From positions 21,268,001 to 21,332,000 of the forward strand of contig NC_086097.1 in assembly GCF_963921235.1 (NCBI RefSeq): DNA of 64,000 nt. The letters run 5' to 3'. Source of the stretch: Mobula hypostoma (Eukaryota). The notes under the pieces were generated by a model. It saw only the letters and a list, made by a program, of their open reading frames with translations. It was not told the DNA's origin and did not search any database. The position numbers and the translations under genes were made by a program. Shown one piece after another: positions 8,200 through 63,885 of this stretch; the stretch's first letter is position 1; the number at the start of each line of letters is the position of its first letter.

Positions 8200-11100
8200 T
8201 AAAATCAGGCCTATGAGGTGTTATGTAGTTAAACCATTTTTTCCAGTATGAATAAAATTGTTCCAACTTATGATTAACAGATGCTATTATCGTCTCCATT
8301 TTGCAAATGTCCATTGTAATTTCCATCCATACATTTAAAGTTGGGGTCTCCTGAGAAAACCATTTCCAGCCACCAGCAGTATATTCATTAAATATTTATC
8401 TCATTTCAACCATTCTTGAGGTTTATACCCAAAATATATGGTCTTACTCTCGAAGGGTATTTCACATTTAAAGATGTCTTGTAGGGCATTATGTATCCTA
8501 CTCCAATAGTCTTTGATAACGGGGCATTCCCAGAAAATATGATAATGGTTTGCGCTTTGATTTCCACAATTTCTCCAGCAAGCAGGGGGTTACTATCATA
8601 ATGGAATTTCTGAGACGGTGTAATAAAATATCTTTTCAAGTTTTTCCACCCGAACTCCCTCCATTTCTGTGAGCTGGTACACTTCCATTGATACCTCCAT
8701 ATTATTGTCCAGTCTTCCTCAGATATTATTATCCCTCCTTCCTTCTCCCATTTTGTTTCAATGTTATGAAGTTGAATGTGTTTTAAGATTTGACAAACCC
8801 TTATAAATGCTTGAAATTATTCTACTACCGTTGTCTGAATATATGCTTTTCTAAATAGCTCTATCAGACATTTACTTGCCTTGGTTACATTTTTAACTAT
8901 CCTATTAACGTACTGTCACATCTGTAAATACCGGTAAAAGACTTGTTTTTCTAATAAGTGTTTTTCTTTGAACATTTCAAAGCTGAACAGTGCTCCTTCT
9001 TTCATTATATTGCAAATAGCTGTTATTCCTTTAGTTGTTCAGTCCTTAAATCTAGCATCCAGTTTATTTGGCGTAAAATCCGAGTCATATGCACACCATT
9101 TAAGAATTTCAATGTCTCTCTTTAGTTTATATTCTTTTATAATAGTTTTCCATATTTTAGGAGTCCATTTCACCCACGAGTTGTCAATATTATTTATGTA
9201 ACTTTGTAGGTTGTTATCAGCCAAAATTGCCTGTATGGGGATGGAAAGTATCCTCTCCTCAATGTTTTTCTATTGAGCGTCATATGATGGGTTGCACCAG
9301 CATATCACGGCTCTCAACTGTGCTGCAAAATAATAATCTCTAAGAGAAGGTAGGCCCCATCCACCTTTTCCTTGGCTAATTGCAAAGTTTTGAGACGAAC
9401 CCTAGGCCTTTTACCTTGCCATATATATCTTGATAGCATCTTGTTCCATTCATTGAATTGATTTTGGTTAATCTCTATTGGTAGGGTCTGAAAGAGATAT
9501 AGAAGTCTGGGCAGTATATTCATTTTAATAGATTCAATCCTTGAACTGAGACCAAGAAAAGGAATTGGGTTCCATCTTGTTACATCTTCCTTAATTTTTT
9601 ATATATATTGGCTGATAATTGCATTCTGATAATTTTGCCAAATCTTTTGACATAATGATGCCCAAATATTTGATGGACCCTGTTTTTGCCATGCCCAAGG
9701 ATATCTACTTTCAATTTCTCTTGGTGGGCTATAGTTATATGAAAGTAAATACGAGGAATTCTGCAGATGCTGGAAATTCAAGCAACACACATAAAAGTTG
9801 CTGGTGAACGCAGCAGGCCAGGCAGCATCTCTAGGAAGAGGTACAGTCGACGTTTCGGGCTGGGACCCTTTGTCAGGACTAACTGAAAGAAGAGCTAGTA
9901 AGAAATTTGAAAGTGGGAGGGGGAGGGGGAGATCCGAAATGATAGCAGAAGACAGGAGGGGGAGGGATGGAGCCAAGAACTGGACAGTTGATTCGCGAAA
10001 GGGATATGAGAGGATCATGGGACAGAAGGCCAAGGGAGAAAGAAAAGGGCGAGGGGGGGGAAGCCCAGAGGATGGGCAAGGGGTATAGTGAGGAGGACAG
10101 AGGGAGAAAAAGGAGAGAGAGTAAAAGAATGTGTGTATATAAATAAATAATGGATGGGGTTCGAGGAGGAGGTGGGGCATTAGTGGAAGTTTGAGAGATC
10201 AATGTTCATGCCATCAGGTTGGAGGCTACCCAGACGGAATATAAGGTGTTGTTCCTCCAACCTGAGTGTGACTTCATCTTTACAGTAGAGGAGGCCGTGG
10301 ATAGACATATCAGAATTGGATTGGGATGTGGAATTAAAATGTGTGGCCACTGGGAGATCCTGCTTTCTCTGGCGGACAGAGCGTAGGTGTTCAGCGCAAC
10401 GATCTCCCAGTCTGTGTGGGGTCTCGCCAATGTATAGAAGGCCACATCGGGAGCACCGGACGCAGTATATCACCCCAGCCGACTCACAGGTGAAGTGTCG
10501 CCTCAGCTGGAAGGACTGTCTGGGGCCCTGAATGGTGGTGAGGGAGGAAGTGTAAGGGCATGTGTAGCACTTGTTCCTCTTACAAGGATAAGTGCCAGGA
10601 GGGAGATCGGTGGAGAGGGATGGGGGGGACGAAGGGACAAGGGAGTCGCGTAGGGTGCGATCCCTGCGGAAAGCAGGGGGGAGGGAGGGAAAGATGTGCC
10701 AGGTGGTGGGATCCCGTTGGAGGTGGCGGAAGTTACGGAGAATTATATGTTGGACCGGAAGGCAGGTGGGGTGGTGGGTGAGGACAAGGGGAGCTATTCC
10801 TAGTGGGGTGGCGGGAGGATGGAGTGAGAGCAGATGTGCGTGAAATGGGGGAGATGCGTTTGAGAGCAGAGTTGATGGTGGAGGAAGGGAAGCCCCTTTC
10901 TTTAAAAAAGGAGGACATCTCCCTCGTCCTGGAATGAAAAGCCTCATCCTGAGAGCAGATGCGGCAGAGACGGAGGAATTGCGAGAAGGGGATGGCATTT
11001 TTGCAAGAGACAGGGTGAGAAGAGGAATAGTCCAGATAGCTGTGAGAGTCAGTAGGCTTATAGTAGACATCAGTGGATAAGCTGTCTCCAGAGATAGAGA

Positions 11101-13675
11101 CAGAAAGATCTAAAAAGGGGAGGGAGGTGTCCGAAATGGACCAGGTAAACTTGAGGGCAGGGTGGAGGCAAAGTTAATGATGTCAACGAGCTCTGCATGC
11201 GTGCAGGAAGCGGCACCAATGCAGTCATCCATGTTGCGAAGGAAAAGTGGGGACAGATACCAGCAGAGGTTTGGAACATAGATTGTTCCACAAAGCCAAC
11301 AAAAGGGCAGGCATAGCTAGGACCCATACGGGTGCCCATAGCTACACCTTTAGTTTGGAGGAAGTGGGAGGAGCCAAAGGAGAAATTGTTAAGAGTAAGG
11401 ACTAGATGGAGCAGATGGAGCAGAGTGGTGGTAGAGGGGAACTAATGCCCCACCTCCTCCTCGTACCCCATCCATTATTTATTTATATACACACATTCTT
11501 TTTCTCTCTCTCCTTTTTCTCCCTCTGTCCATCTCACTATACCCCTTGCCCATCCTCTGGGTTTCCCCTCCTCCCCCTTTTCTTTCTCCCTCGGCCTCCT
11601 GTCCCTTGATCGTCGCATATCCCTTTTGCTAATCAACTGTACAGCTCTTGGCTCCATCCCTCCCCCTCCTGTCTTCTCCTATCATTTTGGATGTCTCCCT
11701 CCCCCTCCCACTTTCAAATCTCTTACTAGCTCTTCTTTCAGTTAGTCCTGACGAAGGGTCTTGGCCTGAAGTGTCGAATGTACCTCTTTCTAGAGATGCT
11801 GCCTGGCCTGCTGCGTTCACCAGCAACTTTTATGTGTGTTGCTTGAATTTCCAGCATCTGCAGATCTCCTCATGTCCACGCTTATCACTATTGCTTCAAT
11901 TTCACTTTTTTTTAATATGATCCATAATGTGAAGTGTCCTTTGTATATTGTCTTGTGTTTGGCGTTGTTGTATAAAACCTGTCTGATCATTATGTATCAG
12001 TGTGGGTAGAAACTCTTCTAATTGTTTGGCCATGATGGAAGTAAATATTCTATAATCGACATTAATAACAGATATTGGTCTAAATGACCCACATTTCATT
12101 TTATCCTTGCCTTTTTTCAGTATGGCTGAGATTATCGCCTCCTTCCAGCTGGGTAGCATTTGTGCCTTTCTTCTGGTCCAGTTCAGTGTGGGGAGTAAAA
12201 TAGGAATTAACTCACTTCTAAACTCTTTATACCACTCTGCTGTATATCTATCTGATCCTGGTGACTTGCTTAATTTTATGCCTACTAAATGCTGTTTTTA
12301 GTTCAGTTATGTCAGCAGTCATCGTTCTATTTTGTTCTTTGCTTAAAGTGGGTAACTCTGAAGAGTTCAGCAAGGTGTCAATTTGGGTTATGCTTCCCCC
12401 TGGAACTTTTGAATATAGAGTTTTGTAAAACATTTCAAAAGCTTCTTGAATTTCACTTAGCTTATCTTTTTTTTATCACTTTTGTTCTTGGATCCCCTAT
12501 TCTATGAATCGTATTTTCTGCTATTTTTTTTTCAGTTTCCATGCCAGTATTTTCATAGATTTAGATCTACTTTCATAGTGTCTCTGTTTCAGAAACATTA
12601 AATTTTTTCTAATTTCTTGTATAGCCAAACTATTAATTTCATTCCTATTTTTTAAAATTTCCTCTAGTGTATTCTGTGCCAAACTCAATTTGTGTTTTTT
12701 TTTCTAGTTCCTTCAGCAAATTTTGTAATTCCTCTAATGATCTATTCCTTATTTTTTTCTTATATGAAGACATCGCTATAATTTTCCCTCTTAAGACAGC
12801 CTTCAGAGTATCCCATAGAATGGGACGTGAAACCTCTCCATTATCATTGAATTCGAAGTAAAGACCAATTTCTTTTTTAATTTGTTCCTTAAAATAGGGA
12901 TCATTGAGTAGACTTGAATTTAGTTTCCAAATAGTATTCTTTGGTTGTAGGTCAAAATCAACAGATAAATATATAGGTCTATGGTCACTTACGTCTATTG
13001 TCCCAATTCCACAGGTGATTATTTTGTGTCTATCTTTTCCAAATGTTATGAAATAGTCTATTCTTGTATATATGTAATGGGGGGCAGAATAATGAGTGTA
13101 ATCCCTTCTGTCGGGGAAAGGGTCCCTCCATATATCAATTAGACCAACATCCTCAAAAAGAGTGTTACTTTCTTATGTAAGGACTTTGTTTCATAAGTTT
13201 CTCTATTGGAAGAGTCTAACTTTGGTTGTAATTGTAAACTTAAGTCTCCCCCACATATCAAGAGACCTTCTGTTTCCGTTACCATAATATTAGTAATTTT
13301 CTGGAAGAAACTAATATCACTTCCTGGGGTTGCGTGTATATTCAATAAAGTAACTGGAATTCCATCTATATTCCCCCTTACCAGGATATATCTGCCCTCC
13401 CTATCTCCCATTTCAAATACTTTTTCAAAATTTAGCTTACTTGAGATGAGAATAGCAACTCCTCTTCTATGTCCTGATTTATATGAGGAGAAAAACAAAT
13501 TAGTGAAGCCCGTTCTCTTTAATTTTCCATGCTCATTATCACTTAAGTGAGTTTCCTGTAAATATACTACATGGGCTTGTTCTTTTTTCATTTTTGATAG
13601 AATTTTGCTGCGCTTGACTGGATTCAACACCCCATTAACATTAAAAGAAATGAATTTTACTTTGTCCTTAGCCAT
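8200..13675 (-). pseudogene. L1 ORF2p remnant (APE endonuclease + RT), RT core missing; 3' limit approximate
   Basis: SFNVNG..LQETH..GGD endonuclease motifs (13139-13675), RPISVINVDYRI..DQTGF RT N-terminal part (11902-12159) and MNILPRLLYLFQ (9314-9523). Confidence 0.85.
9745..11875 (-). mobile_element. Penelope-like element, 5'-truncated, with inverted ~440-bp terminal repeats
   Basis: RT fragment MGTRMGPSYAC and GIY-YIG endonuclease VIYCVRCSRCGLLYIGET..R..EH (10180-11070). 9745-10184 is repeated in inverted orientation at 11441-11875. Confidence 0.92.
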
Positions 13676-24622: not shown

Positions 24623-25008
24623 TAAGTAATATTACCACAAATTAATTAATAAGTAATGAGTTACATTTGCATCATAAGTTTAAAAAGTAAACAGTATAAC
24701 ACCATTGGCTCTTCATACGTGATGAGACCTGGGTGGTGGCAGGCAGTTGAGTAGTCTCATGGCCTGTTGAGGGAAGCTGTTTCCCATCCTAACAATGCTT
24801 GTCCTAATGCTACGTACCTCCTGCCCGATGGGAGGGGATCAAAGAGACTGTTGGCTGGAAGGAAGGGATCATTGACAATGTACACAGTGCTCTTTATAAA
24901 TATCTGATGGGTGGAAGAGAGACCCCGATGATCGCCAGCAGTGCTCACAATCCTTTTTTGGGACTTGTGGTCAGAGACGTTGCAATTTCCATTCCAGACA
25001 GTGATGCA

Positions 25009-26461
25009 ACACATACAAAATGCTGGAGGAACTCAGCAGGCCAGGCAGCATGTAGGAAAAGAGTACAGTCAACAATTCGGGCCGAAACCCTTCGGCAGGA
25101 CTGGAGAGAAAAAGCTGAGGAGTAGATTTAAAAGGTGGGGAGAGGAGAGAGAAACGCAAGGTGATAGGTGAAATCTGAATCTGGAGGGGATGAAGTGAAG
25201 AGCTGTGAAGTTGATTGGTAAAGGAGACAGAAGGCCATGGAAGAAAGAAAAGGGGGGAGGAGCACCAGAGGGAGGTGATGGATGGGCAAGAAGATAAAGT
25301 GAGAGGGGGAAAAGGGGATGGGAAATGATGAAGTGGGGGAGGAGGAATTACCGGAAGCTTGAGAAATCGATGTTCTTGCCATCAGGTTGGAGGCTACCCA
25401 AATGGAAAATGAAGTGTTGCTCCTCCAACCTAAGTGTGGCCTCATCATGACAGTGGAGGAGGCTATAGACAGACATATCAGAATGAGAACTGGAATTAAA
25501 ATGGGTGGCCACTGGGAGAGCCCGCTTTTTCAGGCGGGCAGAGCGTAGATGCTCAGCGAAGCGGTCTCCTAATCTACGTCGGGTCTCACCGATATACAGG
25601 ATGCTACACCGGGAGCACCAGATTCAGTATATAACCCCAACAAATTCACAGGTGAAGTGTCGCCTCACCTGGAAGGACTGTTTAGGGCCTTGAATGGTAG
25701 TGAGGGAGGAGGTGTAGGGGCAAGAGTAAGTGCCAAGAGGGAGATAAGTGGGGAGGGACGAATGGACAAGGGAGTTGCATAGGGAGCGATCCCTGCGGAA
25801 AGCAGTAAGTTGGGGAGGGGGAAGGGAAGGATGTGTTTGGTGGTAGGATCCCGTTGGAGATGGCGGAAATTCCAGAGAATTATGTGCTGGACGCGGACCC
25901 TGGTAGGGTTGTAGGTGAGGACAAGAAGAACCCTATCCCTGGTAGAGTGGTGGGAGGATGGGTTAAGAGCTGACATGCCTGAAATGAAAGAGATGCGTTT
26001 GAGGGCAGTGTTGATGGTGGAGGAAGGGAAGCCTCTTTCTTTGAAAAAGGAGGACATCTCCTTCATTCTAGAATGAAAGCAGATCTGAGAGCAGATGGGG
26101 TGGAGGCAGAGGAATTGAGAGAAGAGGATGGCGTTTTTATAATTAACAAGGTGGGAAGAAGTATAGTTCAGGTAGCTGCGGGAGTCTGTGGATCAGTGGA
26201 TAAGCTGTCTCTGGAGATAGAGACAGTGAGATTGAGAAAGAGGAGGGAAGTGTTGGAAATGGACCAGGTAAATTTGATGGCATGGTGGAAGTTGGAGGCA
26301 AAGTGGATGAAGTTGATGAGTTCAGCATGGGTGCAGGAAGCAGCACCAATGCAGTTGTCGATGTAGCATAGGAAAAGTGCGGGATGGTCACCAGTGTAGG
26401 CTTGGAACATAGACTATTCCACATAACAAACAAACAGGCAGACCTAGCTGGGAGCCATGCC
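25009..26461 (-). mobile_element. Penelope-like element fragment (RT C-terminus + GIY-YIG + terminal repeat)
   Basis: FFKERGFPSS, LRYIDNC-like and GIY-YIG remnants homologous to 9745-11875; possible GATGCA TSD. Confidence 0.85.
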
Positions 26462-27504: not shown

Positions 27505-29466
27505 CCTGAATCTAGCTGTGCAGTTTTGTGTCAGCAGTGCGAACAGCAGGGGGCTGAGCACACAGCCTTGGGGAGCACCAGTGCTTAGCGCAATGGAGCT
27601 AGAGATGTTGCCGCCAACACGGACTGACTGTGGTCTTTCTGTCAAGAAGTCCAAGATCCAGTTTGAAGATAGAGCTGTTGAAACCCAACGAGGACAATTT
27701 ACCCACCAACTTTGGAGGGATGATTGTATTAAACATTGAGCTGAAGTCGATAAACAGCATCCTAGTGTGTGAGGCAGTATTTTTCAGGTTGGATAGGATG
27801 GATTGAAGTTTCCGAGGCTGTGGCATCATAATATTTGCATACATCTTACAGCCTTTCAAAGAGTGTGTCCTTCATGTCGTGAACGCTTCCTGCTGATAAG
27901 TCTTATTTGCACTTCATTAATTCCGACTTGACTACCCTTCACCTGTTCTGGGTTCATGAAGATGTTAGACAATGTTCAGAGAACATAAAACAATGCAGGC
28001 CCTTCAGCCCGCAATGTTATGTTGATCTTTTAATCCTCCCTAAGATCAATCTGACATTTTCCTGCCAAACAGCCCTCCTTGTTTCTTTCATCTCTCTGTC
28101 TATCTTAAATGTCCCTTATGTACCTGCCTCTATCACCACTCATGACAGCATGTTCCATGCATCTACCATTCTCTGTGTGGTTAAAAAAAAACAACTTGCC
28201 TCTGACATCCTCCCTGTACTTTTTCTCCACTTCCCTTAAATGATGCCCTCTTGTATGAGCCATTTCTGCCCTGGGGGGAAAAAATCTCTGGCTGTCCACT
28301 TGATCGGTGCCTCTTATCATCTTGTACACCTCTGTCAAGACACTCTTCACCCTCCTTTGCTCCAAATCAGAATCTGATTTCTTATCACTGGCTTGTCATA
28401 AAATTTGCTGCTTTGTACAATACACAAAATATACATTAAAATGTACTATAAATTACGAAGAGAGAAGCCCTAATTTGCTCAACCTATGCTCATAAGACAT
28501 GCTTTCTAATTCAGACAGCATCCAGGCAAGTCTGCTCTGCACCCTCTCTGAAGCTTCCACGTCCTTCCCAAAAGTAAGGATGCTGCAGTATTTTAGTGTT
28601 CCTACACACCATGCCATTCAAGCAGTTGGATGTAGTTTGCTGTCTGAAAGGGAAATGATTCCTTCTGAACCTCCAACTGCAGGTTGGTTGGTTAAAGCCA
28701 CATGAGAAACTCTTGGCTGAGATTCTGGAAGAGATGAAGAAGGATAAGTAAAATAAACAGTCTGCCTTCAGTACACAGCTTCTGTTACTTTCTGATCCGG
28801 TTGCTCACATTTTTGTCATCAGAGTCAGTTGGGAGAATGTTTCTATAGCAATGGACAGAAATAGCGCTGTTTCTGTAATTACTGGTTTTATCAATTTTCC
28901 CTACTTCAGATGTGATCATCCATCACATTTCCCCGGTTGGAGGCGTTAGTGGTGTTACAATTAGCCCAGCCAGCGCCCTGCTCTTGAATTGTGCTGGGGT
29001 GTCAGAGGTGCTGCCTTTGAATGAGATGTTAAATTGCTGTCTCAGCCAGACAGAAAAGATCTCCTTGGCTTTAATCAAAGGAGAGCAGGAGAATTCTTCT
29101 CCTTGTCCAACGTCAGCGGAAGTTGGTCACTTGTTGCTTTTCCTGGGGCTTTGCTTGTGAAAACAGGAACTGTTTCCAGACCCCTTCACTGGGTCCTCCT
29201 GATGACGGGCAAAGTGCAATTGAATATTTTTTCCATATGTAAACCATTGAATAGCCCCCAGAAATGCTTCCGAGTCCAAATGGGGAAGTTGCAGCAAGGT
29301 AAGGGTTACGATAATGCTCAGGCAAGGATAGTTTAGATATCGTGTGCAGTCTGTCCAGGCAAGTGAAGCCTTTGAAGAGCATAGCTTCCCTTTGCATAGC
29401 AGGGGACTGGAGCCATTTGGCACACCAAGACAAGATAAGGATTCAAAAGAAGCATTCTAGAGTGAC

Positions 29467-29570
29467 GTAAACACGAGGAATTCTGCAGATGCTGGAAATT
29501 CAAGCAACACACATCAAAGTTGCTGGTGAACGCAGAGGCCTGCTGCGTTCACCAGCAACTTTGATGTGTG
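29467..29570. mobile_element. 104-bp fold-back Penelope terminal insertion
   Basis: Same terminus as 9745; perfect 28-bp stem (29508-29535 / 29543-29570); 13-bp TSD ATTCT(A/G)GAGTGAC. Confidence 0.9.
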
Positions 29571-29786
29571 ATTCTGGAGTGACACTAATTGGTCAGTTGC
29601 TTTATTAACTCTTAAGTATTATTGGCCTTTAATGTGGAGATTCTTTTGGCTATAGATACCTGTATTATTGTAGTGTGATTGGTGATTGATTATACAAATA
29701 AGGAATCTGAACATACACGAGGTTATCAATTTGTTAATATCTGTGTCAACTAGTCATTTTCTGTATAAAAATGACATTTCTTTGTT

Positions 29787-30684
29787 GCCGGCTGGTGACG
29801 CAGTGGCATCAGCGCTGGACTTCGGAGCGAAGGCTCCCGAGTTCGAATCCAAGTCAGGCCCCCTCCCCCCACCCCCGAGCACACTTTCATTCCGTGCCAG
29901 AGGATTCGAGTACAGGAGCAGGGAGGTACTACTGCAGTTGTACGAGGCCTTGGTGAGACCACACCTGGAGTATTGTGTGCAGTTTTGGTCCCCTAATCTG
30001 AGGAAAGACATCTTTGCCATAGAGGGAGTACAAAGAAGGTTCACCAGATTGATTCCTGGGATGGCAGGACTTTCATGTGATGAAAGACTGGATGAACTAG
30101 GCTTATACTCGTTGGAATTTAGAAGATTGAGGGGGGATCTGATTGAAACGTATAAAATCCTAAAGGGATTGGACAGGCTAGATGCAGGAAGATTGTTCCT
30201 GATGTTGGGGAAGTCCAGAATGAGGAGTCACAGTTTGAGGATAAAGGGGAAGCCTTTTAGGACCGAGATTAGAAAAAACTTCTTCACACAGAGAGTGGTG
30301 AATCTGTGGAATTCTCTGCCACAGGAAACAGTTGAGGCCAGTTCATTGGCTATATTTAAGAGGGAGTTAGATATGGCCCTTGTGGCTAAAGGGATCAGGG
30401 GGTATGAAGGGAAGGCTGGGGTGGGGTTCTGAGTTGGATGATCAGCCATGATCATAATAAATGGCGGTGCAGGCTTGAAGGGCCGAATGGCCTACTCCTG
30501 CACCTATTTTCTATGTTTCTATGTGCCGGGTTGAGCATTGAGCTAGCCGCTCGGCCTTGTAAAAAAACAAGGGTCGAGTCAGGAACGTTTATATCGTGAC
30601 CCGGTTAATCCGAAAGGAGGCCAATCCTGACACTACGCACCAGACAAGAATGGCTGACTGTCTGGTGCGACATTCTTGGAAGGA
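29787..30684 (+). mobile_element. tRNA-derived SINE interrupted by a CR1
   Basis: A box TGACGCAGTGG and B box GTTCGAATCC; 11-bp TSD ATTTCTTTGTT. The head and body match 45987-46210. Confidence 0.85.
29900..30522 (+). mobile_element. Young CR1 3' fragment
   Basis: Open RT C-terminus (LVRPHLEYCVQFWSP..RVVNLWNSLP); GTGCC TSD; near-identical to 52073-52652. Confidence 0.92.
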
Positions 30685-31723: not shown

Positions 31724-31852
31724 ATGGCCAGGTGGTTCCTGAGGTTTGGAGCAGCGGCCACGGCAGGGTTAACGGTATCGGGTTTATACGCTGCCACCCG
31801 GGTGGATCCGAATGACATCGGAATCATTAGAATTGGACGAGCTGTTGTCACG
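31724..31852 (+). CDS. ADCK1: ADCK1 (aarF-domain kinase 1) first coding exon, MARWFLRFGAAATAGLTVSGLYAATRVDPNDIGIIRIGRAVVT
   Basis: Acceptor ctttctgtccgatAG at 31689-31690, ATG at 31724, phase-0 donor ACG|GTAAGT. The peptide matches recalled ADCK1 ..LDPNDFGAVRVGRAVAT. Confidence 0.92.
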
Positions 31853-32079
31853 GTAAGTTATGCTAGTAAATCAGAAAAATCACATTTGCACTAGGATTTT
31901 ATTTGGGGTTTTTACCGCCCCCCCCCCCAGTAAACAATAGAGACACAGTTACATCGTAGTGAAGCAGATCCTTTGGGTATTGCCCATCTTAGTGCCCAAA
32001 TAGTGGAACCTTTCTACATTAATCCTGCTGTTTCTCTGTAGGAACTCTCCACCTCTTCACTCTGAATGAAGATTCATTT

Positions 32080-37908: not shown

Positions 37909-37992
37909 ACTGCAGTTATCAGTTATGACTACCTTGCCTCGCTCAAGGGTCTGGAATATGGTACAGAGGAATATGAATCCGTCAAGTCGCAG
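37909..37992 (+). CDS. ADCK1: ADCK1 next coding exon (84 nt), TAVISYDYLASLKGLEYGTEEYESVKSQ
   Basis: Pyrimidine tract plus tttcAG acceptor and CAG|GTAAGG donor, phase 0/0 and in frame with the previous exon. Matches recalled ADCK1 TAVISYDYLTSLKSVPYGSEEY. Confidence 0.95.
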
Positions 37993-43140: not shown

Positions 43141-44509
43141 TTTGTAATTTGTAGTAATTTTTGTCTTCCCATTGAACTGCTGCTGCAAAACAAGTTTTAC
43201 ATCATACAAGTCAGTGATATTAAATGTGATTCTGATTCCTTGGGGCCAAAATGTGTTACATGTTCCATGAACCAGATATGATATTAGGGAAAAACAAAGA
43301 GTGGGGAAGATTCGAACAAGAGGGCATGGGTTGAGAATTAGAGGACAAAAGTTTAAGGGTAACATGAGGGGGAACTTCTTTACTCAGAGAGTGGTAGCTG
43401 TGTGGAAGTGGTTGAGGTAGGCTCTATGTTGTTGTTTAAAGTTAAAATGGATAGATATATGGACAGGAAAGGAATGGAGGATTATGGGCTGAGTGCAGGT
43501 CGGCGGGAATAGGATAGGGTAAGAGTTCGGCACGGACTAGAAGGGCCGAGATGGCCTGTTTCTGTGCTGTAATTGTTATATGGTTATATGGTTATAAAGA
43601 GAGCTGTTCTAACATTGCAGGATTCTTTATAGAATTAATCAATAGTCCAAATAACAGTTTTGCTTTGAACTTATTTACTAGTTGCAAGGATATTGAATGT
43701 GTAGGGTTGGTGGGTGGTGGTGGTTGGAAATGATATAATGGCTGTCTGATCAGAGGTGTAATACAGTGCCGTTACTTTATTGAAAAGATCCCCGGTGAAG
43801 AGTCAGACATACCCTTTCCTAGCAACCAGCCCAAGGCAAATGCCTCTCTTTCAATAAGTAATATAAAATTTATAATAATAGCGAAAGTCCTTTCCTGTGA
43901 GAGCTTAGTAGAAGTGGCCCTTGTCTATAAAGTAGCAGTATTGTGATGAAGAACAGTGACTGAAACTTTAAGTTGAATGAAAAGGCAGATTCTTCATCAG
44001 ATGAAGTGTCCTTGTGACTCTTTTGTTGTCAGACTGAAGAAGAATGAACAGTTCGTGAAAATCTTCTGTAGGTCATCATTTGGACTAAACCTTCCCTTGT
44101 AGCAAGGTTTCAATCTAAATATTTACCAACGTTAATTGAGATTAATTATTAATAAAGTGACTCAATGGCTTATTTTGGCATTTTTGAAGCTTATTAATTA
44201 CACACTTGAGAGGAGAGACAATTAAATCGCAAACATCCTATTATGGAGTTCAATAACACCGCTAGATAGTTGTGGCAGTAAAAATAATCTGAAAAAGAAT
44301 TCTGCTTTTCTGTCACCGTGAACTTGAGCTGCCATTTCCAGTCCTCATTGACAGTCATCGTTCGTGCTATGTCACCATGTACTGCATGGCAAGTAGAATC
44401 CTTGTCATGTTGTCATGTCTTGCTGACCTGTCAGTGCTGGAACTGTGATAGACTTTTAAAGTCTAGGCCTAAGCTTTTGGCCTACACTCTAGCCCACTTG
44501 TGGTGAATG

Positions 44510-45069
44510 CAGACATCCCACCTCTCCCGGAAGTTCTGGGAGTCTCCCGCATATTAATAGTGGCTCCCTGATGCCCGCAAATTATATACAATATCACGGA
44601 AATTGATTTTTTTGAGAGCGAGCGAGAGAGAATGAGAGAGAGAGTGCAAGAGCATGCCAGAGAGAGCGGGGTCGAGAGAGGGAGATAGAGTGAGAGAGCG
44701 AGCGAGAGAGAGAGAGAGAGAGAGAGTGCACGCGCACCATGGCAGAGTGTTCCAAAAAAAGAAAATATAAAACGTACATCACCCCAGACTACCCTAAAGT
44801 GTACCCCTGCCTAATAGGGGTCAAAAGTAATGACAGTGTTGCTTGGTGCACTGTTTGCAACAGTGACTTTTCTATTGCCCATGGTGGGTTAAGACTGTAA
44901 AAGACATGTTGAGGTGAGTTTAACAGGTGTCATTCGTTCATTAGCATAGCTAACGTTATTTAAACTAGCTGGCTAGCTGTTAAGGAGCTACTCTATTGCA
45001 GACATCCCCCCTCCCGCAAATTGATGGTGCTACCTCCCTGAAATGAATTTTTGCAGGGTGGGATGTCTG
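44510..45069 (+). mobile_element. Non-autonomous hAT element with a transposase N-terminal remnant and a (GA)n tract
   Basis: TIR CAGACATCCCACC / GGTGGGATGTCTG; TSD TGAATG (or GTGAATGC); ORF 44739-44900 encodes C-x2-C..FSIAHGG, then DCKRH after a frameshift. Confidence 0.85.
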
Positions 45070-45986
45070 TGAATGCATACCTTTTGGGAATGTCTGGACG
45101 AATCACGGCTTGGAAAGGTAACTGCCCTGTTCAAAATCGCAAACACCTGATGAGAATTGTGGACGGCACTTGGCATGTTATGGAAAACAGCCTCCCCTCC
45201 ATGTTCTACACTGTCTACACTTCTTACTGCTTGGTAAAGCAGCCAGCATGATCAAAAACCCCACTCACCTCAGACATACTCACTTCTACCCCCCTTCTCC
45301 CCTTCCCATCAGCCAGAAGATTCAAAAGCCTAAAAGCATGCACATCCAAGCTCAAGGACAGCTTCTATCCTGCTGTTATAAAACTATTAGATAGTTTCCT
45401 AGTATGTTAAGATGGATTCTTGACCTCACAATCTACCTGAATGGCTTGTGGTATGATGAGTGTTTGATGGCTCTGGGCCTGTATTCACTAGAATTCTGAA
45501 GAATAAAGGGTGACCTCATTGGAGCCTATTGAATGGTGAAAGGCCTTGATAGAGTGCATGCGGAGAGGATATTTCCTATGGAGGGAGAGTCTAAGACCAG
45601 AGGACACAGCCTCAGAATAGAGGGGTATTCTTTTAGATCTGGGATGAGGCGGAATTTCTTTAGGCAGAGAGGGTTGAATCTGTGGAATTCTTTGCTATAG
45701 GCAGCTGTGGAGGCCAAGTCTTTAGGTATATTTAAGCAGAGGTCGATAGATTCTTGATTGGTCGGGGCATGAAGGGATACAAGGAGAAAGTCGGAGAGTG
45801 GGGCTGAGAGGAAAACTGGATCAACCACGGTGAAATAGCGGAACAGACTTGATGGGCTAAATGGCCTAATTCTGCTGCTATATTTTATGGTCTTATGATC
45901 TCATTATGGCTTTGTTCCTTGTTGGCTGAAACTGTAACATCTTATACTGCATTCTCTTATTGTTTTCTCATGTACTATCTCAATGT

Positions 45987-46210
45987 TGCCAGCTGGTGGT
46001 GTAGTGGCATCAGCGCCGGACTTCAGAGCGAAGGCTCCCGAGTTCGAATCCAGCCGGCTCCCTTGCACGCTTTCCATCCGTGCTGGGTTAAGCGTCGAGC
46101 TAGCAACTCGGCCTCATAAAAAAAATAAGAAAGCCTGCTAAAAATTTGCTGTCATGACGGCGTCCCGATGGCTCCACTCGGATTTAAGGGCTTTCTTCGT
46201 CTTCTTCTTC
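45987..46210 (+). mobile_element. tRNA-derived SINE with a (TTC)n tail
   Basis: A/B boxes and CTCAATGT TSD. Confidence 0.85.
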
Positions 46211-47028
46211 GCCTCAATGTACTGATGTGATGAAATAATCTGTATGGGTGGTATGGAAAGTGAAGTTTTTCACTTCCTGGGTATTTGTGACATAATAAAC
46301 CAATACCAATAGGAATAATCACAAAGGGAAGGGATTGAAGCTATCTGTGTAACAAGTGGTGAAAGCCCTACTTGACCACTTAGTTCTTATGACAAAATGT
46401 TTTTGTTGTACTGCTTACACCTAATAAGAACTATTGAAGATATTAAATTGCATCTTAGCTGCTAAGCCTGAATGACTATCTCTGCACTGTATTGGTAGTA
46501 GTCTACATTGTCACGTGTACCAAGATACAGTGAAAAGCTTGTCTTGCATGCTGTTCATACAGATCAGATCATTACTGAGCTAGAATAAGGTAAAACAATA
46601 ATAGTGCTGGGTAAAGTGTAAAAGCTACTTGAAAAATGCAGTGCAGGTAAACAATTAAGTACAAGATCATAATGAGGAAGATTGTGAAGCCAAGTGATCC
46701 ATCTTATCATCTGATATTCAAGGTTCTTGTGACAGTGGGATAGAAGCTGACTTTGATCCTGGTGGTATGATGGAGGGGAGAAGAAAGAATGTTAGGGGTG
46801 GGTGGGCTCTTTGATTATGCTGGCTGCTTTACTAAGGCAATGAGAAGTACAGACAGAGTCCATAGAGGGAAAACTGGTTCCTATGATGTGCTGAGCTGTG
46901 TCCAAAACTCTCTAGTTACTTGTGGTCACGTGCCTAGCACTTGCCATTACCAAGCTGTTATGCATCCAGACATAATGCTTTCCCTGGTGCGTCGTCAAAA
47001 ACTGTAAAAGTCAACAGGGAAAACCGAA

Positions 47029-47431
47029 CACGAGGAAATCTGCAGATGCTGGAATTTCAAGCAACACACATAAAATAATGCTGGTGAACGCAGCAGGCCA
47101 GGTAGCATCTATAGGAAGAGGTACAGTCGATGTTTCAGGACAAGACCCTTCGTCCATTTCCAGTCCTCATTGACAGTCATCGTTGGTGCTATGGCGCCAT
47201 GTACTGCACAGCAAGTAGAATCCTTGTCATGTTGCCATGTCTTGCTGGCTTGTCAGTGCTGGAACTGTGATAGACTTTTAAAGCCTAGGTCTAGGCTTTG
47301 GGCCTACACTCTAGCCCACTTGTGGTGAATGCATACCACTTGGGAATGTCTGGATGAATTATAGTCAGGACGAAGGGTCTCGGCTGGAAACATCGACTGT
47401 ACCTCTTCCTATAGATGCTGCCTGGCCTGCT
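47029..47431. mobile_element. Fold-back Penelope termini enclosing a captured local sequence
   Basis: Inverted PLE arms at 47029-47153 and ~47366-47431; 13-bp TSD AGGGAAAAC(C/T)GAA (47016-47028 / 47432-47444); the filler is a copy of 44333-44510 + 45077-45110. Confidence 0.88.
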
Positions 47432-48322
47432 AGGGAAAACTGAATTTCTTTAGCCTCCTGAGGAAGTAGAAGCTTTGGTGATATCAACATGGTTGGACTA
47501 GAACAGGCGATTGGTGATGTTCAAACCTATAAACTTGAAGCTCTCAGCATTCTCAACCTGTTGATGTAGACAGAAGCATGTGCACCCTTCTCCCACACCT
47601 CCACCCCTTCTGGTCAGTGACCAGCTTTTTCATTTTGTTGGCATTGAAGGAAAAGTTGTGGTCGTGACACTATCTCACTAAGCTCTCTATCTCCCTCCTG
47701 TACGCTAGCTTGTTGTTATTTGAGATGTAGCCCACTGATCTGCAACTTTGTAAACTGAGTACGAACCGAATCTGGCCACACAGTTATGAGTGTACGGGGA
47801 CTAGAGTAGGGGGTTTTACAAAGGCAGATTGGAGTTCTGAGGGATATGCATTGCAACCATAAACTTGTATATAATTACAGCCTGATACACTACTGGCATT
47901 TAGGGCAGCATTAAAGGTCCTCCATCTCTGACAGCGTTCAGGGCATCCTTCATCATGTCAGTAGCTTCTTTTCGATTTTTCACTACCGTCAATCATACAA
48001 GTCCCAGGTGGAGTCTTAGGAATACCGTCACACTCAGATGTAGAAGGATTCCTCATTGCTCTTTCTGTAACAATTTTGTTGTACCAGTCAGAGTTGTTAG
48101 CCCTGAGGAGGATGCAATGTGTAACATGGATGAAGGGAGATTAAAATAAATTAAAAAGTTGTTATTGTTGGTCCATTGTACAACTTCAAGGATTGCACTT
48201 CCTGCAGAAGGTGTTTGCAGTTTCAAAGGACAAGGCATCCAAAACCATTAAAACAGGTTGCAGGTTTTCCCCTGAGAGTGAAAGGAGTTGGTTTCCTAAA
48301 AAAAGCCTCTGTTGTATAAATA

Positions 48323-49854
48323 CAGTGCCAATAAAAAGTGTTCACCCCCTTGGAAGTTTTCATGTTTTATTGTTTTACGATGTTGAATCATGGTAGATTT
48401 AATTTGTTTTTTTTGACACTGATCAACAGGAAAAGACTCGTATCAAAGTGAAAACAGATTTCTACAAAGTGATCTAACTAATTACAAATATAAAACACAA
48501 AATAATTGATTGCACAAGTATTCACCCCCTTCAAGTCAGTATTTAGTAGAAACACCTTTGGCAGCAATTACAGCCTCGAGTCTGTGTGAATAGGTCTCTA
48601 TCGGCTTTGCACATCTGGCCACTGCAATTTTTTCCTGTTCTTCTTTACAAAACTGCTCAAGCTCTGTCAGATTGCATGGGGATTGTCAGTGAACAGCCCC
48701 TTTCATGTCCAGTCACAAATTCTCAGTTGAATTGAGGTCTGGACTCTGACTTGGCCACTCCAGGATATTAACTTTGTTGTTTTTAAGCCATTCCTGTGTA
48801 GTTTTGGCTTTATGCTTGGTGTCATTGTCTTGCTGGAAAACAAATGTTCTCCCAAGTCACAGTACTGTTGCAGACTGCATCAGATTTTCCTCCAGGATTT
48901 TCTTGTATTTTGTTGCATTCATTTTGCCCTCTACCTTCAGAAGCCTTCCAGGGCCTGCTGCAGTGAAGCCTCCCTACAGCATGATGCAGCCACCACCATG
49001 CTTTAGAGTAGCGACCTTCTTCCAGCTGATATCAGAGTCTCCCACATACCTTCTGCCAAACTCTAGATGAGATTTTTTGCAAGTTTTTATCAACAGTGGC
49101 TTTCTCTTTGCCGTTCTCCCATAAAGCTGCAGTTGCTATATGCACAGTCAACAGTTGCTGAATGAGCAGTCTCTCCCACCTCAGCCTCTGAAGCCTGTAT
49201 CTCCTCCAGAGTTGTCATAGGTCTCTTGGTGGCCTCCCTCCCTCCCTCCCTTCTTGCATGGTCACTCAGTTTTTGAGGATGGCCTGCTGTAGGTGGGTTT
49301 ACAGCTGTTGCCGTCTTCATTTCTTGATGATTGACTTAACTGTACTCCAAGGAATATTCAGTTACTTGGAAATTTTCTTGTATCCATATCCTGGTTTCTG
49401 CTTTTCAATAATCTTTTTGCAGAGTTGGTTGGAGTGTTTTTTTGTCTTCATGGTGTAGTTTTTGCCAGGACACTGACTCACCAGCCGTTGGATCTTCTAG
49501 ATACAGGTGTATTTTTGCTACAATCAATTGAAACACATTGACTGCACACAGATTTCCAAAAAACAGATCTCCACCTAACTAATACTGTGACTTCTAGAAC
49601 CAGTTGGCTGTACTATTGATGATTTGTTGAGTCATATTAAACGGGGGTGAATGCTTATGCAATCAATTATTTTGTGTTTTATATTTGGAATTAATTTAGA
49701 TCACTTTGTAGAGGTCTGTTTTCACTTTGACATGAAGAGTCTTTTTCTGTTGATCTGTGTCAAAAAAGCCAAATTAAATCCACTGTGATTCAATGTTGTA
49801 AAACAATAAAACATGAAAGCTTCCAAGGGGGATGAATACTTTTTATAGGCACTG
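48323..49854 (-). mobile_element. Tc1 transposon with long (~210 bp) IR/DR-type TIRs and an internally deleted transposase
   Basis: CAGTGCC(A/T)ATAAAAAGT..CCCCCTTGGAAG termini, TA flanks; REATKRPMTTLEE and QQDND-type remnants. Confidence 0.9.
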
Positions 49855-49964
49855 TATAATGGGAGCTACAGGGAGCCCTTGCCTTTTGCAAGGTGTACCA
49901 GTTACCGTGAATGGTAAGGAAGCAAGAGGGAAACAGAAATATTCTAGTCAGTGAGTGAATCCTC

Positions 49965-50530: not shown

Positions 50531-52072
50531 AAGGAACTTTCTGTTAAGCATGCAATAAATCAGATGCTTCTTTTGACATGCTGAAACTTACAAGTCAATC
50601 ATCTAATAGTCACTGTAGATGGGTGCTCAAGAGTTATATGTAGCATGTTTATTTCACAGAGTCCTTCCCATTAACCCAATTAAAGGAAGTTAAATGTTAC
50701 AAGAGTTGGAGCAGTAAAACTAGTCCAGATGAAGGAGCTCAACTCATATCGCTGACTGTTCATTTCCCTCCACAGATGCTACCTGACCTGTTGAGTTCCT
50801 CCAGTGTTTTGTGTGTTGTTTCAGATCCCGGTGTCTACAGTCCCTTGTGTCTCCAGTTGAAAGTTACAGTTCTTCGCAGACTTGTTTTCTCCAAATGTTT
50901 TTGCTACCCATTGTTTCTGTGAATTAACCTCTTGTTAACTGACAACTAAAATTAAATAAAAGCTTTTTTTTGTTGGAGTGAAAATTCCTTCAGTGAATGC
51001 TTGCTTATTATGAGAGACCTTCTATCTCATCGTGATCTGAGACTGTATTTTCTCCAATAGCCTGATGATGGTGCTGCAGGTTGGTTAGAAATTGAAAATG
51101 TTTAAAGATTAGCTGATTTGTCACTTGTACATCGAAACATTGAAAAAAACAGTGAAATGCATTATTTTGCGTCAATGACCAACACAGCCTGAAGACGTGC
51201 TGAGGGCAGCCTGCAAGTGTTGCCATGCTTCCAGTGTCAACATAGCATGCCCATAACTTTTTAACCCTAACCTGTACGACGTTTGGAACGTAAGAGGAAA
51301 CCGGAGCACCCGGATGAGACCCTGGTCATGGGGAGAATGTGCAAACTCCTTACAGACAGTGGTGGAATTGAACTGCGACCTTCCAATCGCTGGCACTATA
51401 AGGTGTTACATGAACTGCTTGACATCATATGGACTTGACAGATACATAGAACAGTACAGCACAGTACAGGCCCTTCAGCCCACAATGTTGTGCCAACCCT
51501 CAAACCCTGCCTCCCATATAAGCCCTCACCTTAAATTCCTCCATATACCTGTCTAGTAGTCTCTTAAACTTCACTAGTGTATCTGCCTCCACCACTGACT
51601 CAGGCAGTGCATTCCACACACCAACCACTCTCTGAGTAAAAAACCTTCCTCTAATATCCCCCTTGAACTTCCCACCCTTTACCTTAAAGCCATGTATTGA
51701 GCAGTGGTGCCCTGGGGAAGAGGCGCTGTCTATCCACTCTATCTATTCCTCTTATTATCTTGTACACCTCTATCATGTCTCCTCTCATCCTCCTTCTCTC
51801 CAAAGGCTAAAGCCCTAAATCCCTTAATCTCTGATCATAATGCATACTCTCTAAACCAGGCAGCATCCTGGTAAATCTCCTCTGTACCCTTTCCAATGCT
51901 TCCACATCCTTCATATAGTGAGGCGACCAGAACTGGACACAGTACTCCAAGTGTGGCCTAACCAGAGTTTTATAGAGCTGCATCATTACATCGCGACTCT
52001 TAAACTCTATCCCTCGACTTATGAAAGCTAACACTCCATAAGCTTTCTTAACTACCCTATCCATAATCAATC

Positions 52073-52652
52073 AGGAGCAGGGAGGTACTACTGCAGTTGT
52101 ACAAGGCCTTGGTGAGACCACATCTGGAGTATTGTGTGCAGTTTTGGTCCCCTAATCTGAGGAAAGACATCCTTACCGTAGAGGGAGTACAAAGAAGGTT
52201 CACCAGATTGATTCCTGGGATGGCAGGACTTTCATATGATGAAAGACTGGATGAACTAGGCTTATACTCGTTGGAATTTAGAAGATTGAGGGGGGATCTT
52301 ATTGAAACATATAAAATCCTAAAGGGATTGGACAGGCTAGATGCAGGAAGATTGTTCCCGATGTTGGGGAAGTCCAGAACGAGGGGTCACAGTTTGAGGA
52401 TAAAGGGGAAACCTTTTAGGACCGAGATGAGGAAAAACTTCTTCACACAGAGAGTGGTGAATCTGTGGAATTCTCTGCCACAGGAAACAGTTGAGGCCAG
52501 TTCATTGGCTATAGTTAAGAGGGAGTTAGATATGGCCCTTGTGGCTAAAGGGATCAGGGGGTATGGAGGGAAGGTTCTGAGTTGGATGATCAGCCATGAT
52601 CATACTGAGTGGCGGTGCAGGCTCGAAGGGCCGAATGGCCTACTCCTGCACC
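52073..52652 (+). mobile_element. Young CR1 3' fragment (same subfamily as 29900-30522)
   Basis: ORF 52097-52687 encodes the RT C-terminus; TTTTCTATG tail. Confidence 0.92.
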
Positions 52653-53419
52653 TATTTTCTATGTTTTCTATGTTAATCCACTTCTGACTCATTTTGGATT
52701 GTTTTCTTTGTTCTCCACTTTCATTACAGAAATAATTATTTTAAATGTCTATAAACATAATATACATTTGAAAAGTGCATGGGAAAGGAACAATCAGGAG
52801 CTTCCAAAATTACTGCAGTTCATTGAACATACAGCATGGCCCAGGCTGTTGGACCCACCATATTGTGCCAACCTTTTAACCTTCTCTTGGATCAATCCAA
52901 CCTTCCCCTCCAGAATAGCTCTCTCTTTCTATTATCCATATTTCTACATAAGAATTTATTAAATGCTATTGCTTTGCACTGTTGTAACTATATGTTATAA
53001 TTATGTGGTTTTTGTCAGTTTTAGTCTTGGTCTGTCTTGTGTTTCTGTGATATCATAATGGAGGAACATTGTATCATTTCTTAATGCATGCATTACTAAA
53101 TGACAAACGAGGACTGAGTGTCCTCATAATCTAAAAAAAAATGTCCCTAGTGTATCTGACTATACCACCACCCCCTCTGTCAAGTGTCTTTCACTCTGAA
53201 AAGAAAGGCCCTAGTTCACTCAACCCATCCTTATAAGACATGCTATCTAATCCAGGCATGATCCTGTGGGGTAAATCTCCTCTGTACCTTCTCTAAGGCT
53301 TCCACAATCTTCCTATAATGAGTTGGCCAGAAATGAATTATCATTGTTAAATATCACCATCACGTCTGCTGAGCAACAATTTTGAAGTGCAAACAGGGAT
53401 CAAACCCTTGAAAATGATC

Positions 53420-61620: not shown

Positions 61621-63885
61621 ATGAATCAGAATCAGGTTTATTATCACCGGCATGTCATCTGAAATTTATTAACTTAACAGCAGCAGCAGTTCAATGCAAT
61701 ACATAATCAAGCAGAGAGAAAAAAATACATAAAATAAAATAAAAAATAATAATAATTAAGTGAATCAATTAACGTATACGTATATTGAATAGATTTAAAA
61801 ACATGCAAAAACAGAAATACTGTGTGTTCAAAAAAGAGTGAGGTTGTGTCCAAAGATTTAATGTCCATTTAGGAATCGGATGGCAGAGGGGAAGAAGCTG
61901 TTCCTGAATCACTGAGTGTGTGGCTTTAGGCTTCTGTACCTCCTACCTGACGTGAGAAAAGGGCATGCCCTGGGTGCTGGAGGTCCTTAATAATGAAAGC
62001 TGCCTTTCTGAGATACTGTTCCCTGAAGATGTCCTGGGTACTTTGTAAGCTAGTACCCAAGATGGAGCTGATTAGATTTACAACCTTCTGCAGCTTCTTT
62101 TGGACCTGTGCAGTAGCCCCTCCACACCAGACAGTGATGCAGCCTGTCAGAATGATCTCCACGGTACAAATATAGAGGTTTTTGAGTGTATTTGTTGACA
62201 TACCAAATCTCTTCAAACTCCTAATAAAGTATAGCTGCTGTCTTGCCTTCTTTTTAACTACATCAATATGTTGGGACCAGGTTAGATCCTCAGAGATCTT
62301 GACATCCAGGAACTTGAAGCTGCTCACTCTCTCCACTTCTGATCCATCTATGGGGATTGGTATGTGTTCCTTCATCTTACTGTTCCTGAAGTCCACAATC
62401 AGCTCTTTCATCTTATTGACGTTGAGTGCCAGGTTGTTGCTGTGGCACCATTCCACTAGTTGGCATATCTCACTCCCGTACGCCCTCTGGTCACCACCTG
62501 AATTTCTACCAACAATGGTTGTTTCGTCAGCAAATTTATAGATGGTATTTGAGCTATGCCTAGCCACACAGTCATGTGTATTTATAGAGTAAGGCAGTGG
62601 GCTAAGCACACACCCCTGAGGTGCACCAGTGTTGATCGTCAGTGAGGAGGATATGTTATCACCAATCTGCATAGATTGTGGTCTTCCGGTTAGGAAGTTG
62701 AAGATCCAGTTGCAGAGGGAGGTACAGAGGCCCAGGTTCTGCAGCTTCTCAATCAGGGTTGTGGGAATGATGTTATGAAATGCTGAGCTATAGTCGATGA
62801 ACAGCATCCTGACGTAGGTGTTTGTGTTGTCCAGGTGGTCTAAAGCTGTGTGGAGAGCCATTGAGATTGCGTTTGCCATTGACCTATTGTGGCGATAGGC
62901 AAATTGCAATGGGTCCAGCTCCTTGCTGAGGCAGGAGTTCAGTCTAGTCATGACCAATCTCTCAAAGCATTTCATCACTGTCGATGTGAGTGCTACCGGG
63001 CAATAATCATTAAGGCAGCTCGCATTATTCTTCTTAGGCACTGGTATAATTGTTACCTTTTTGAAGCAAGTGGGAACTTCTGCCCATAGCAGTGAGAGGT
63101 TGAAAATGACCTTGAATACTCCTGCTAGTTGGTGGCACAGGTTTTCAGAGCCTTACCAGGTACTCCATCGGGACCTTCCGCCTTGTGAGAGTTCACTCTC
63201 TTTAAAGACAGTATAACATTAGCCTCTGAGACAGAGATCACAGGGTCATCAGGTGCAGCAAGGATCTTCACAGCTGTAATTGTGTTCTCCCTTTCAAAGC
63301 ATACATAGAGGCATTGAGTTCATCTGGTAGTGAAGTATTGCTACCATTCATACTATTGGGTTTCACTTTGTAGGAAGTAATGTCTTGCAGACCCTGCCAG
63401 AGTTGCCGTGCATCCAATATCGCCTCCAATCTCATTTGAAATTGTCTCTTCGCCTTTGAAATAGCCCTCCGCAAATCATACCTGGTTTTCTGGTATAGGC
63501 CTGGATCATCAGACTTGAATTCCACAGATCTAGCCTTCAGCAGACAACGTACCTCTTGGTTCACTCACGGCTTTTGGTTTGGGAACGTACAGTAAGTCTT
63601 TGTGGGCATGCACTCATCCACACAGGTTTTAATGAAGTTGGTAACAACTGCAGCATACTCATCCAGGTTCGAAGATGAATCCCTGAATACAGTCCAGTCC
63701 AGCAATTCAAAGCAGTCCTGTAGTCACTCCTGTGCTTCCCTTGTCCATACCTTCTTGGTCTTCACTACTGGTGCTGCAGTCTTCAGTCTCTGCCTATACT
63801 CAGGGAGTAGAAGTACAGCTAAGTGATCAGACTACCCGAACTGAGGGCGTGGAATAGCACAGTAGGCATTCTTGATGGTGGTTTA
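61621..63885 (-). mobile_element. Rex1/Babar LINE, 5'-truncated, with a long RT ORF (61926-63041), inserted in a CR1 3' UTR
   Basis: [32 protein letters not shown] and YKFADE (catalytic DD mutated) motifs; (TTCTGA)n tail. Confidence 0.93.

Follow-up and report, generated by a model that had tools for sequence, protein, structure and literature searches.

The fold-back insertion of a Penelope element (PLE) described here encloses a piece of host sequence, and so raises the question of where this piece was copied from, when, and on what kind of template. The insertion lies in an intron of the ray ADCK1 gene and is made of two head-to-head Penelope pLTR arms with a central filler between them, all inside one 13-bp TSD. 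A preliminary description of the window (the whole 64-kb stretch of DNA that was analysed) had reported two inverted PLE termini within a 13-bp TSD, and this was borne out by the alignment of the arms and by the match between the two TSD copies (Table 1), which was equalled by only 8 of 20,000 random boundary pairs within ±5 nt. Inverted arms within one short TSD are the arrangement of a Penelope inverted pLTR insertion.

Table 1 Positions in the window of the insertion, its donor and the neighbouring elements and exons.
Feature	Position	Strand	Basis or remarks
ADCK1 exon	about 31724-31853	+	Identity to annotated ray ADCK1 proteins
ADCK1 coding exon	37909-37992	+	Identity to annotated ray ADCK1 proteins
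Donor part 1, low-copy DNA, its last 8 bp being the left-hand duplication of the transposon	44332-44510	+	Sequence match
Non-autonomous hAT-like DNA transposon, splits the donor	44511-45068	+	13-bp identical inverted ends; 8-bp duplication 44503-44510 / 45069-45076
Donor part 2, reaching 14 nt into the old LINE fragment	45077-45103	+	3 differences in 27 nt against 47333-47359
Old 5′-truncated LINE fragment beside the donor	45090-45449	+	Forms an inverted pair with the LINE that took up the insertion
Old LINE copy that received the Penelope arms, continues past 47444	46661-47015	-	Right flank shows 65% likeness to the LINE at 61926-63152, which encodes RT
TSD, left copy	47016-47028	.	12/13 identical to 47432-47444, mismatch at a CpG
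Left arm, Penelope pLTR starting at the element 3′ terminus and reaching halfway into the hammerhead-like core	47029-47154	-	As cDNA, + strand
Filler, copied from the donor without its transposon, in direct orientation and sense to ADCK1	47154-47359	+	15 differences in 206 nt, no gaps
Right junction	47360-47368	+	2 nt decayed donor or untemplated, then pLTR-like TAGTC, then AG instead of CT
Right arm, inverted relative to 47092-47154	47369-47431	+	Lacks the outer 63 nt of the element; as cDNA, - strand
TSD, right copy	47432-47444	.	Pairs with 47016-47028

The true 3′ terminus of the element is present in the left arm only, which overlaps the TSD by 2 nt, has 1 nt (47154) in common with the filler, and shows 89% identity to each end of the PLE at 9745-11877 and 90% to 29470-29540; compared with both ends of 9745-11877, the two arms together give identities of 84-89%. 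Both arms had been thought to break inside the CTGACGA part of the hammerhead motif, which is correct for the left arm and not for the right, since the latter extends 5 nt further (TAGTC) and, with these pLTR-like junction letters included, occupies 47362-47431. The AG at 47367-47368 of the right arm aligns with CT in both copies of the subfamily that cover this place in the window; it sits in the loop of a GTC-NN-GAC mini-hairpin and could be a 2-nt inversion, a snap-back apex or a subfamily variant.

The reading frame of the PLE at 9745-11877 gives a weak GIY-YIG match (E = 0.0065), which at 17.2 bits is below the Pfam cut-off of 22.6, the RT part being missing from this truncated copy. A minimal hammerhead core (CTGAC-A, stem II, GAAAC and a palindromic GTCGAC) was recognised at 9836-9884 by eye only, and a minimal hammerhead motif with a palindromic helix III has been described in Penelope pLTRs (PMC4209133, in its accessible text). 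Rfam returned no hammerhead and nothing at gathering level in the window, two short stretches searched against it gave one chance-level lncRNA match each (E above 8) and nothing else, and the single-strand folding z of the hammerhead-like core was -1.07. In metagenome contigs an 18-nt motif of the arms was met at eight loci, seven of which matched over 18-20 nt only and one over 37 nt at 84%, with the filler in none of them.

Other insertions of this kind were seen in the window. A second short fold-back of the same pLTR (29454-29583) has a 13-bp TSD (12/13) and turns at a GGCC palindrome with no filler, its right arm ending about 40 nt inward of the terminus in AC-rich sequence, which resembles the second start site reported for a lizard PLE. 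The PLE at 9745-11877, which contains the GIY-YIG frame, is itself head-to-head, with 432-bp inverted ends (92%) and a filler-free junction near 11440; a search for its TSD found none.

The filler matches its donor without gaps in both parts, with 12 differences in 179 nt (167/179 alike) between 47154-47332 and 44332-44510, and 24 of 27 nt alike between 47333-47359 and 45077-45103. The match breaks past 47359, where three differences fall within the next 5 nt, and the end of the filler is placed at about 47359-47361, that is, at about 45103-45105 of the donor. The preliminary description had the copy right and its ends slightly wrong, pairing 47154-47362 with 44333-44510 and 45077-45110. Its statement that the filler reads without interruption through the place where the transposon now divides the donor is confirmed by GGTGAATGCATACC, which stands unbroken at 47324-47337, and the donor does span a joint between low-copy DNA and an old LINE, as it had proposed, entering the LINE by the length given in Table 1. 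Apart from the two donor pieces and one 20-nt self-match, the filler has no match in the 64-kb window, so that the captured piece has a single nearby donor, whose start lies 2.1 kb from the TSD when the transposon is left out. Within the first 15 nt of the donor, AGTCCT (44339-44344; 47161-47166 in the filler) repeats the 6 nt that precede the break point of the pLTR, a coincidence expected in that span at about 0.4% from window frequencies (calculated post hoc) and for which no mechanism was found.

The element that splits the donor is 558-560 bp long, and its 13-bp inverted ends take in positions 44510 and 45069. As these ends overlap the duplication by one base each, readings with an 8-bp or a 6-bp duplication both fit, and the empty site is identical under either. 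Its assignment to the hAT superfamily is plausible. A 53-aa frame with CxxC and H (44739-44897), which we liken to hAT zinc fingers, had no match above the Pfam cut-off and was assigned to no transposase family.

In order to count copies of the filler segment, contigs from four of 23 public runs (three samples) were aligned to 44745-47900 at 85% likeness. Organism A is that of the window (share 0.80), B had a share of 0.44, and C, represented by two runs of one sample, a share of 0.11; within the aligned stretch, donor part 1 and the left end of the transposon are seen only through contigs that fall on the filler. Depth in the filler-internal bin was 33.5 in A, 23.9 in B and 8.9 and 9.8 in C, against 15.4, 10.3 and 7.1 and 8.0, respectively, in the single-copy bin, and between 10^4 and 10^6 in the PLE and transposon bins. 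Over 47194-47235 there were two contigs in A, two in B and one in C (runs of 2.5-2.7 billion letters, at least 85% likeness), and at 47194, 47209, 47210 and 47235 both A and B had one contig with the donor letter, the remaining depth carrying the filler letter. The segment is thus present in two copies in A, there is evidence of two in B, and one is observed in C.

These counts agree with the earlier view of the filler as a local copy and not a repeat family or a part of the PLE consensus, and neither high copy number nor membership of the PLE was found. A dispersed repeat that matches nearby DNA by chance is in our judgement scarcely credible as a source, and is already refuted at 85% likeness by the contig counts over 47194-47235 and by the lack of the filler in every other PLE copy of the window, even though its last 14 nt derive from an old LINE family and copies less than 85% alike would escape the contig alignment.

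The single contig of C over this segment (1186 nt) aligned to 47160-47359 with 21 differences and crosses the transposon site (47332/47333) without a gap. It carries the donor letter at five diagnostic places and extends for 825 letters on what is read as the side of donor part 1, and a contig of equal depth lies at 45150-45165, in the right flank of the donor; we therefore read it as the orthologue of the donor without the transposon. Because the lone copy of C spans the site without a gap, the empty state is ancestral. A second copy of the segment was not seen in C, which reflects missing cover and is not proof of absence, and among the joints listed no contig of C crossed 47028, either filled or empty, so that the lack of the PLE there is likewise one of cover only. 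No orthologue with the transposon and without the PLE, which would have contradicted the preliminary description, was met.

Both repeat subfamilies, the PLE pLTR and the transposon, are far rarer in C: the depth of the window letter was 4.1 million (A) against 21 thousand (C) at 47403 and 242 thousand against 165 at 44778, and the transposon, of very high depth in A and B, was 17-fold lower in C besides being missing from its orthologous contig. Contigs of A and B over the right end of the transposon and the left end of the PLE enter the repeat by 23-27 letters, under the tool threshold of 31 (in B, 26 letters at the transposon and 23 at the PLE). Over 47284-47329, B had a donor-type contig and no filler-type contig, and its filler may be shorter there through a deletion, or unassembled. 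A joint from 47112 to 47411, whose depth reached 230 in a single B contig against about 10 in C, fits fold-backs that turn at a CTATAG palindrome and is consistent with a recurrent apex at other loci.

The sequences of C also allow the copy to be dated. In six orthologous contigs, 28 of 1336 sites (2.1%) distinguish A from B, compared with 15 of 206 (7.3%) between filler and donor (p = 0.0002). With C as outgroup over 47191-47329, five differences are specific to the filler, five to the donor and six separate C from both, one three-way site having been set aside; this count assumes that all differences of C in that stretch are among the 12 listed of 21. The resulting age of the copy has a mean of 0.21-0.24 of the way from the split with C to the present, with a 95% bound at about 0.5, which suggests that the copy was made early after that split. 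As A and B both appear to carry the two insertions, while C lacks the transposon and shows no copy of the filler, the two insertions are not separated directly; nevertheless, an early copy together with the absence of the transposon from C places the filler before the transposon, and by this comparison the copy very probably predates it. The order had been proposed beforehand, with the filler said to preserve the empty site, and is now well supported by the empty orthologue of C and the outgroup dating. The copy thereby allows two transposon bursts to be put in sequence with no need for a relative carrying just one of the insertions.

This order applies to a filler made in the course of integration as well as to one made afterwards, under every mechanism considered here except one, in which the timestamp would be false: the transposon would already have been in the donor, and the copying enzyme would have skipped it between the 8-bp duplications, held together by the inverted ends. 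Skipping would yield the exact empty-site sequence, and since the two duplications are identical the junction cannot tell the difference; A and B, moreover, carry both insertions. We consider it very improbable, as the copy appears to date from early after the split with C, which has no transposon, so that arrival of the element in a short interval and a precise skip would both be needed, and as the transposon copy differs from the majority of its family at 7 or more of 325 nt, against about 3.6% per copy for the filler.

The strand of the host gene bears on the template. The two ADCK1 exons of the window, with 100% and 96% identity to the annotated proteins, lie upstream of the donor, and no ADCK1 exon was found after 37909-37992 within the window; the exon had been missed by motif scans and was located by a splice-signal scan, and its 30-aa peptide had no identification in the protein atlas. 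Donor and insertion are hence in one + strand intron, the filler being sense to the pre-mRNA and inside it, with the donor upstream of the insertion. The left arm, as + strand cDNA, can only have continued on a - strand template, which excludes ADCK1 pre-mRNA, while the right arm, as - strand cDNA, could have used either pre-mRNA or + strand DNA. Of the two templates suggested at the outset, nearby DNA or pre-mRNA, the second is consequently available to the right arm and not to the left.

We propose, with less than even confidence, that the reverse transcriptase at the right end switched onto the nascent pre-mRNA. A single Penelope integration would have made a cut in the old LINE, staggered by 13 nt, and both DNA ends would have been extended by reverse transcription of pLTR RNA to give the usual head-to-head pair. 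The two cDNAs would have halted no more than 8 nt apart at the hammerhead core and, being of the same strand sense, could not anneal. The enzyme making the - strand at the right end would then have moved to the ADCK1 transcript and copied 206 nt towards the RNA 5′ end (donor 45103 to 44332), its product being joined to the left cDNA through microhomology of 1 nt at most; the hAT-like transposon would have entered the donor later, before A and B split. A filler in the sense orientation from a donor upstream in the same intron is what a tethered nascent transcript requires, and the 5 nt of pLTR in the right arm beyond the end of the left are the pattern of two independent cDNAs. A PLE protein from a lizard, predicted to form a dimer, cuts and extends both strands and needs no homology to start, which makes priming at both ends plausible, and in the accessible text of the same paper the steps after first-strand synthesis are left unvalidated in vitro (PMC11167929).

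Other observations count against a switch to pre-mRNA. Resected single-stranded + strand DNA would account for each of its features equally well; the transcript could not have served the left arm, in which the true terminus lies and which was likely the first cDNA; the change of CT to AG needs an extra small inversion, and the right arm starts at no recognised terminus. It is also a single event, two of the three head-to-head insertions examined in the window having no filler. A mark of RNA was sought in the filler: there is no splice junction within the segment, and none of the five filler-specific changes is A>G, the filler being mostly outside the duplex where editing would be expected.

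A DNA template within the same integration event is a rival reading, with the PLE enzyme or a host repair polymerase extending a cDNA end on a donor strand before joining. It gives the same direct orientation, and junction microhomology of 0-1 nt fits end joining. The donor would have to be exposed by resection of the left end over at least 2 kb, or by a replication or transcription bubble. We think a DNA template rather unlikely, because about 2.1 kb of DNA would be laid open while the 13-bp TSD stayed intact, whereas discrete TSDs are taken as a sign of little end processing (PMC11702581, in the text available), and because local templated insertions in yeast are mostly under 14 bp, with a maximum of about 150 bp, in the accessible part of PMC11724301. 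Homology-directed invasion by the left DNA end was also considered and rejected, as it predicts an inverted copy and the filler is direct.

Two old LINE copies in inverted orientation, one beside the donor and the other at the insertion site, offer a possible reason for the choice of segment. The LINE at 45090-45449 is identical to the reverse complement of 46661-46973 at 229 of 307 aligned nt, and an RNA duplex of 45090-45300 with 46760-46973 has a predicted energy of -205 kcal/mol, against -88 ± 7 for 50 shuffles. The LINE at 61926-63152, which the right flank of the receiving copy resembles at 65%, has a Pfam RVT_1 match, and among the joints listed other LINE copies connect 46833-46982 to 47443 in 2-13 contigs per joint and run. 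The stem would end 43 nt ahead of the TSD, bringing the 3′ end of the donor beside the break, and the filler begins within the stem, 14 nt from its base, which would make this the approximate switch point. When the insertion site is mirrored through the LINE pair, its image falls at 47291-47303, within the filler; the chance that a random 207-nt piece would include this image ranges from 4% (within ±2.5 kb) to 1% (within ±10 kb), a post hoc figure. A jump of the second end onto the nascent transcript of the entered gene, steered by an inverted-repeat stem beside the break, seems unlikely to us. The pair could equally fold resected single-stranded DNA, and the geometry thus does not choose between RNA and DNA. 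As a separate observation, an older PLE terminus at 25007 (24925-25009) is in the same LINE family, about 50-60 nt off the equivalent position; with the insertion site, this makes it possible that copies of the family are a preferred PLE target.

Switching during integration and repair of a finished palindrome would yield the same sequence. In the latter case a near-perfect palindrome with the apex GTC-AG-GAC (47364-47371) would have broken and been patched with nearby DNA, GTC being duplicated, and the capture would be a matter of repair, not of retrotransposition. Removal of 47155-47366 leaves a palindrome with 63-bp arms and a 5-nt centre, and removal of 47152-47363 a form with a 2-nt loop in which AG is what a continued cDNA would read; a filler-free fold-back of the same family exists (29467-29570), and perfect palindromes rearrange at the centre in mice and cells (PMC8701086). 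Still, 93% of the 118 palindrome rearrangements that the accessible text of this review covers were deletions, and inclusion of a spacer was uncommon. The TA ahead of GTC matches the pLTR, which later repair would have to explain by chance (1 in 16) or by a doubly decayed CpG. The arms differ from each other at 5 of 63 nt, similar to filler and donor (Fisher p = 0.79), as fits one event, although a later patch would be compatible too; no gap in age between arms and filler is seen, the intervals being wide (2.6-17.6% for the arms, 4.1-11.7% for the filler). We judge later repair to be distinctly improbable.

Several other repeats were seen in the window. Just downstream of the insertion, 48320-49857 is an element with 215-bp inverted ends (88%) and TA flanks, which we take to be Tc1-like. 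A 181-nt direct pair at 88% (5809-5988 and 52963-53137) has no other match in the window, and two 613-nt LINE 3′ pieces, 22 kb apart (29913-30524 and 52072-52673), are 94.8% identical.

A filler with known donor, strand and age bears on how Penelope integration is completed and how its inverted ends form, as it records which templates were within reach. One case proves little, but the terminus is very abundant in ray genomes, and across these the orientation and side of the donor and the geometry of the repeats would separate RNA from DNA templates. Were the switch to pre-mRNA beside a stem true, old inverted repeats would predict which local segment is duplicated, and ray fold-back copies would form a dated genome-wide record of the two-ended mechanism of Penelope. 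As a source of duplication the event is minor, amounting to 206 nt of intron with no sign of function.

No Penelope junction filler traced to a local donor was found in the literature searched (which included few subscription papers and no supplements), and the accessible portions of PMC9977147, PMC13174262 and PMC11722881 contain no case of local capture by a PLE; closer cases may be present in Fig. S10 of PMC11702581 and Extended Data Fig. 9g of PMC10191854. Local capture as such is already on record for L1 and R2, and rotifer Penelopes are known to capture host sequence between their pLTRs. An L1 insertion that co-inserted pre-mRNA from its vicinity (PMC10191854) was one somatic human event as far as its available text describes, whereas the ray insertion is germline, Penelope and common to two organisms, with a putative RNA template. 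Like L1 twin priming, the ray insertion joins two opposite cDNAs through a third piece of local templated sequence, with TSDs in L1 of 12-18 bp; however, twin priming copies two different parts of one RNA, usually with microhomology (PMC11702581, accessible text), while both arms of the ray insertion copy the same stretch of pLTR and the right TSD junction has zero microhomology. At R2 junctions the cDNA 3′ end primes extra synthesis ahead of joining, with the cDNA itself, nearby DNA or a further RNA as template, but that system is engineered and confined to a fixed rDNA site, and snap-back on nearby DNA gives the opposite strand (PMC11204384, in part), unlike the direct filler seen here. The filler shares with break-templated insertions a short copy of other DNA and little junction microhomology, and with palindrome revision a spacer that stabilises the palindrome, yet local events in yeast are short inverted copies adjoining the break (PMC11724301, in the available text), and palindrome revisions are mostly deletions (PMC8701086, likewise). 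A further likeness is to the endonuclease-bearing Penelopes of Adineta vaga, which have inverted pLTRs in one short TSD, junction palindromes and unrelated non-coding sequence between solo pLTRs, and which carry unspliced host sequence between pLTRs (PMC3846280). In the accessible text of that paper the captured sequence either is a gene flanked by two direct pLTRs or has no stated source, whereas in the ray it lies at the point of inversion, has a single donor 2 kb away in the same intron, and has an ancestral state given by an outgroup. What the event adds for the Penelope class is limited to the local donor, the outgroup and a suggestive fold geometry.
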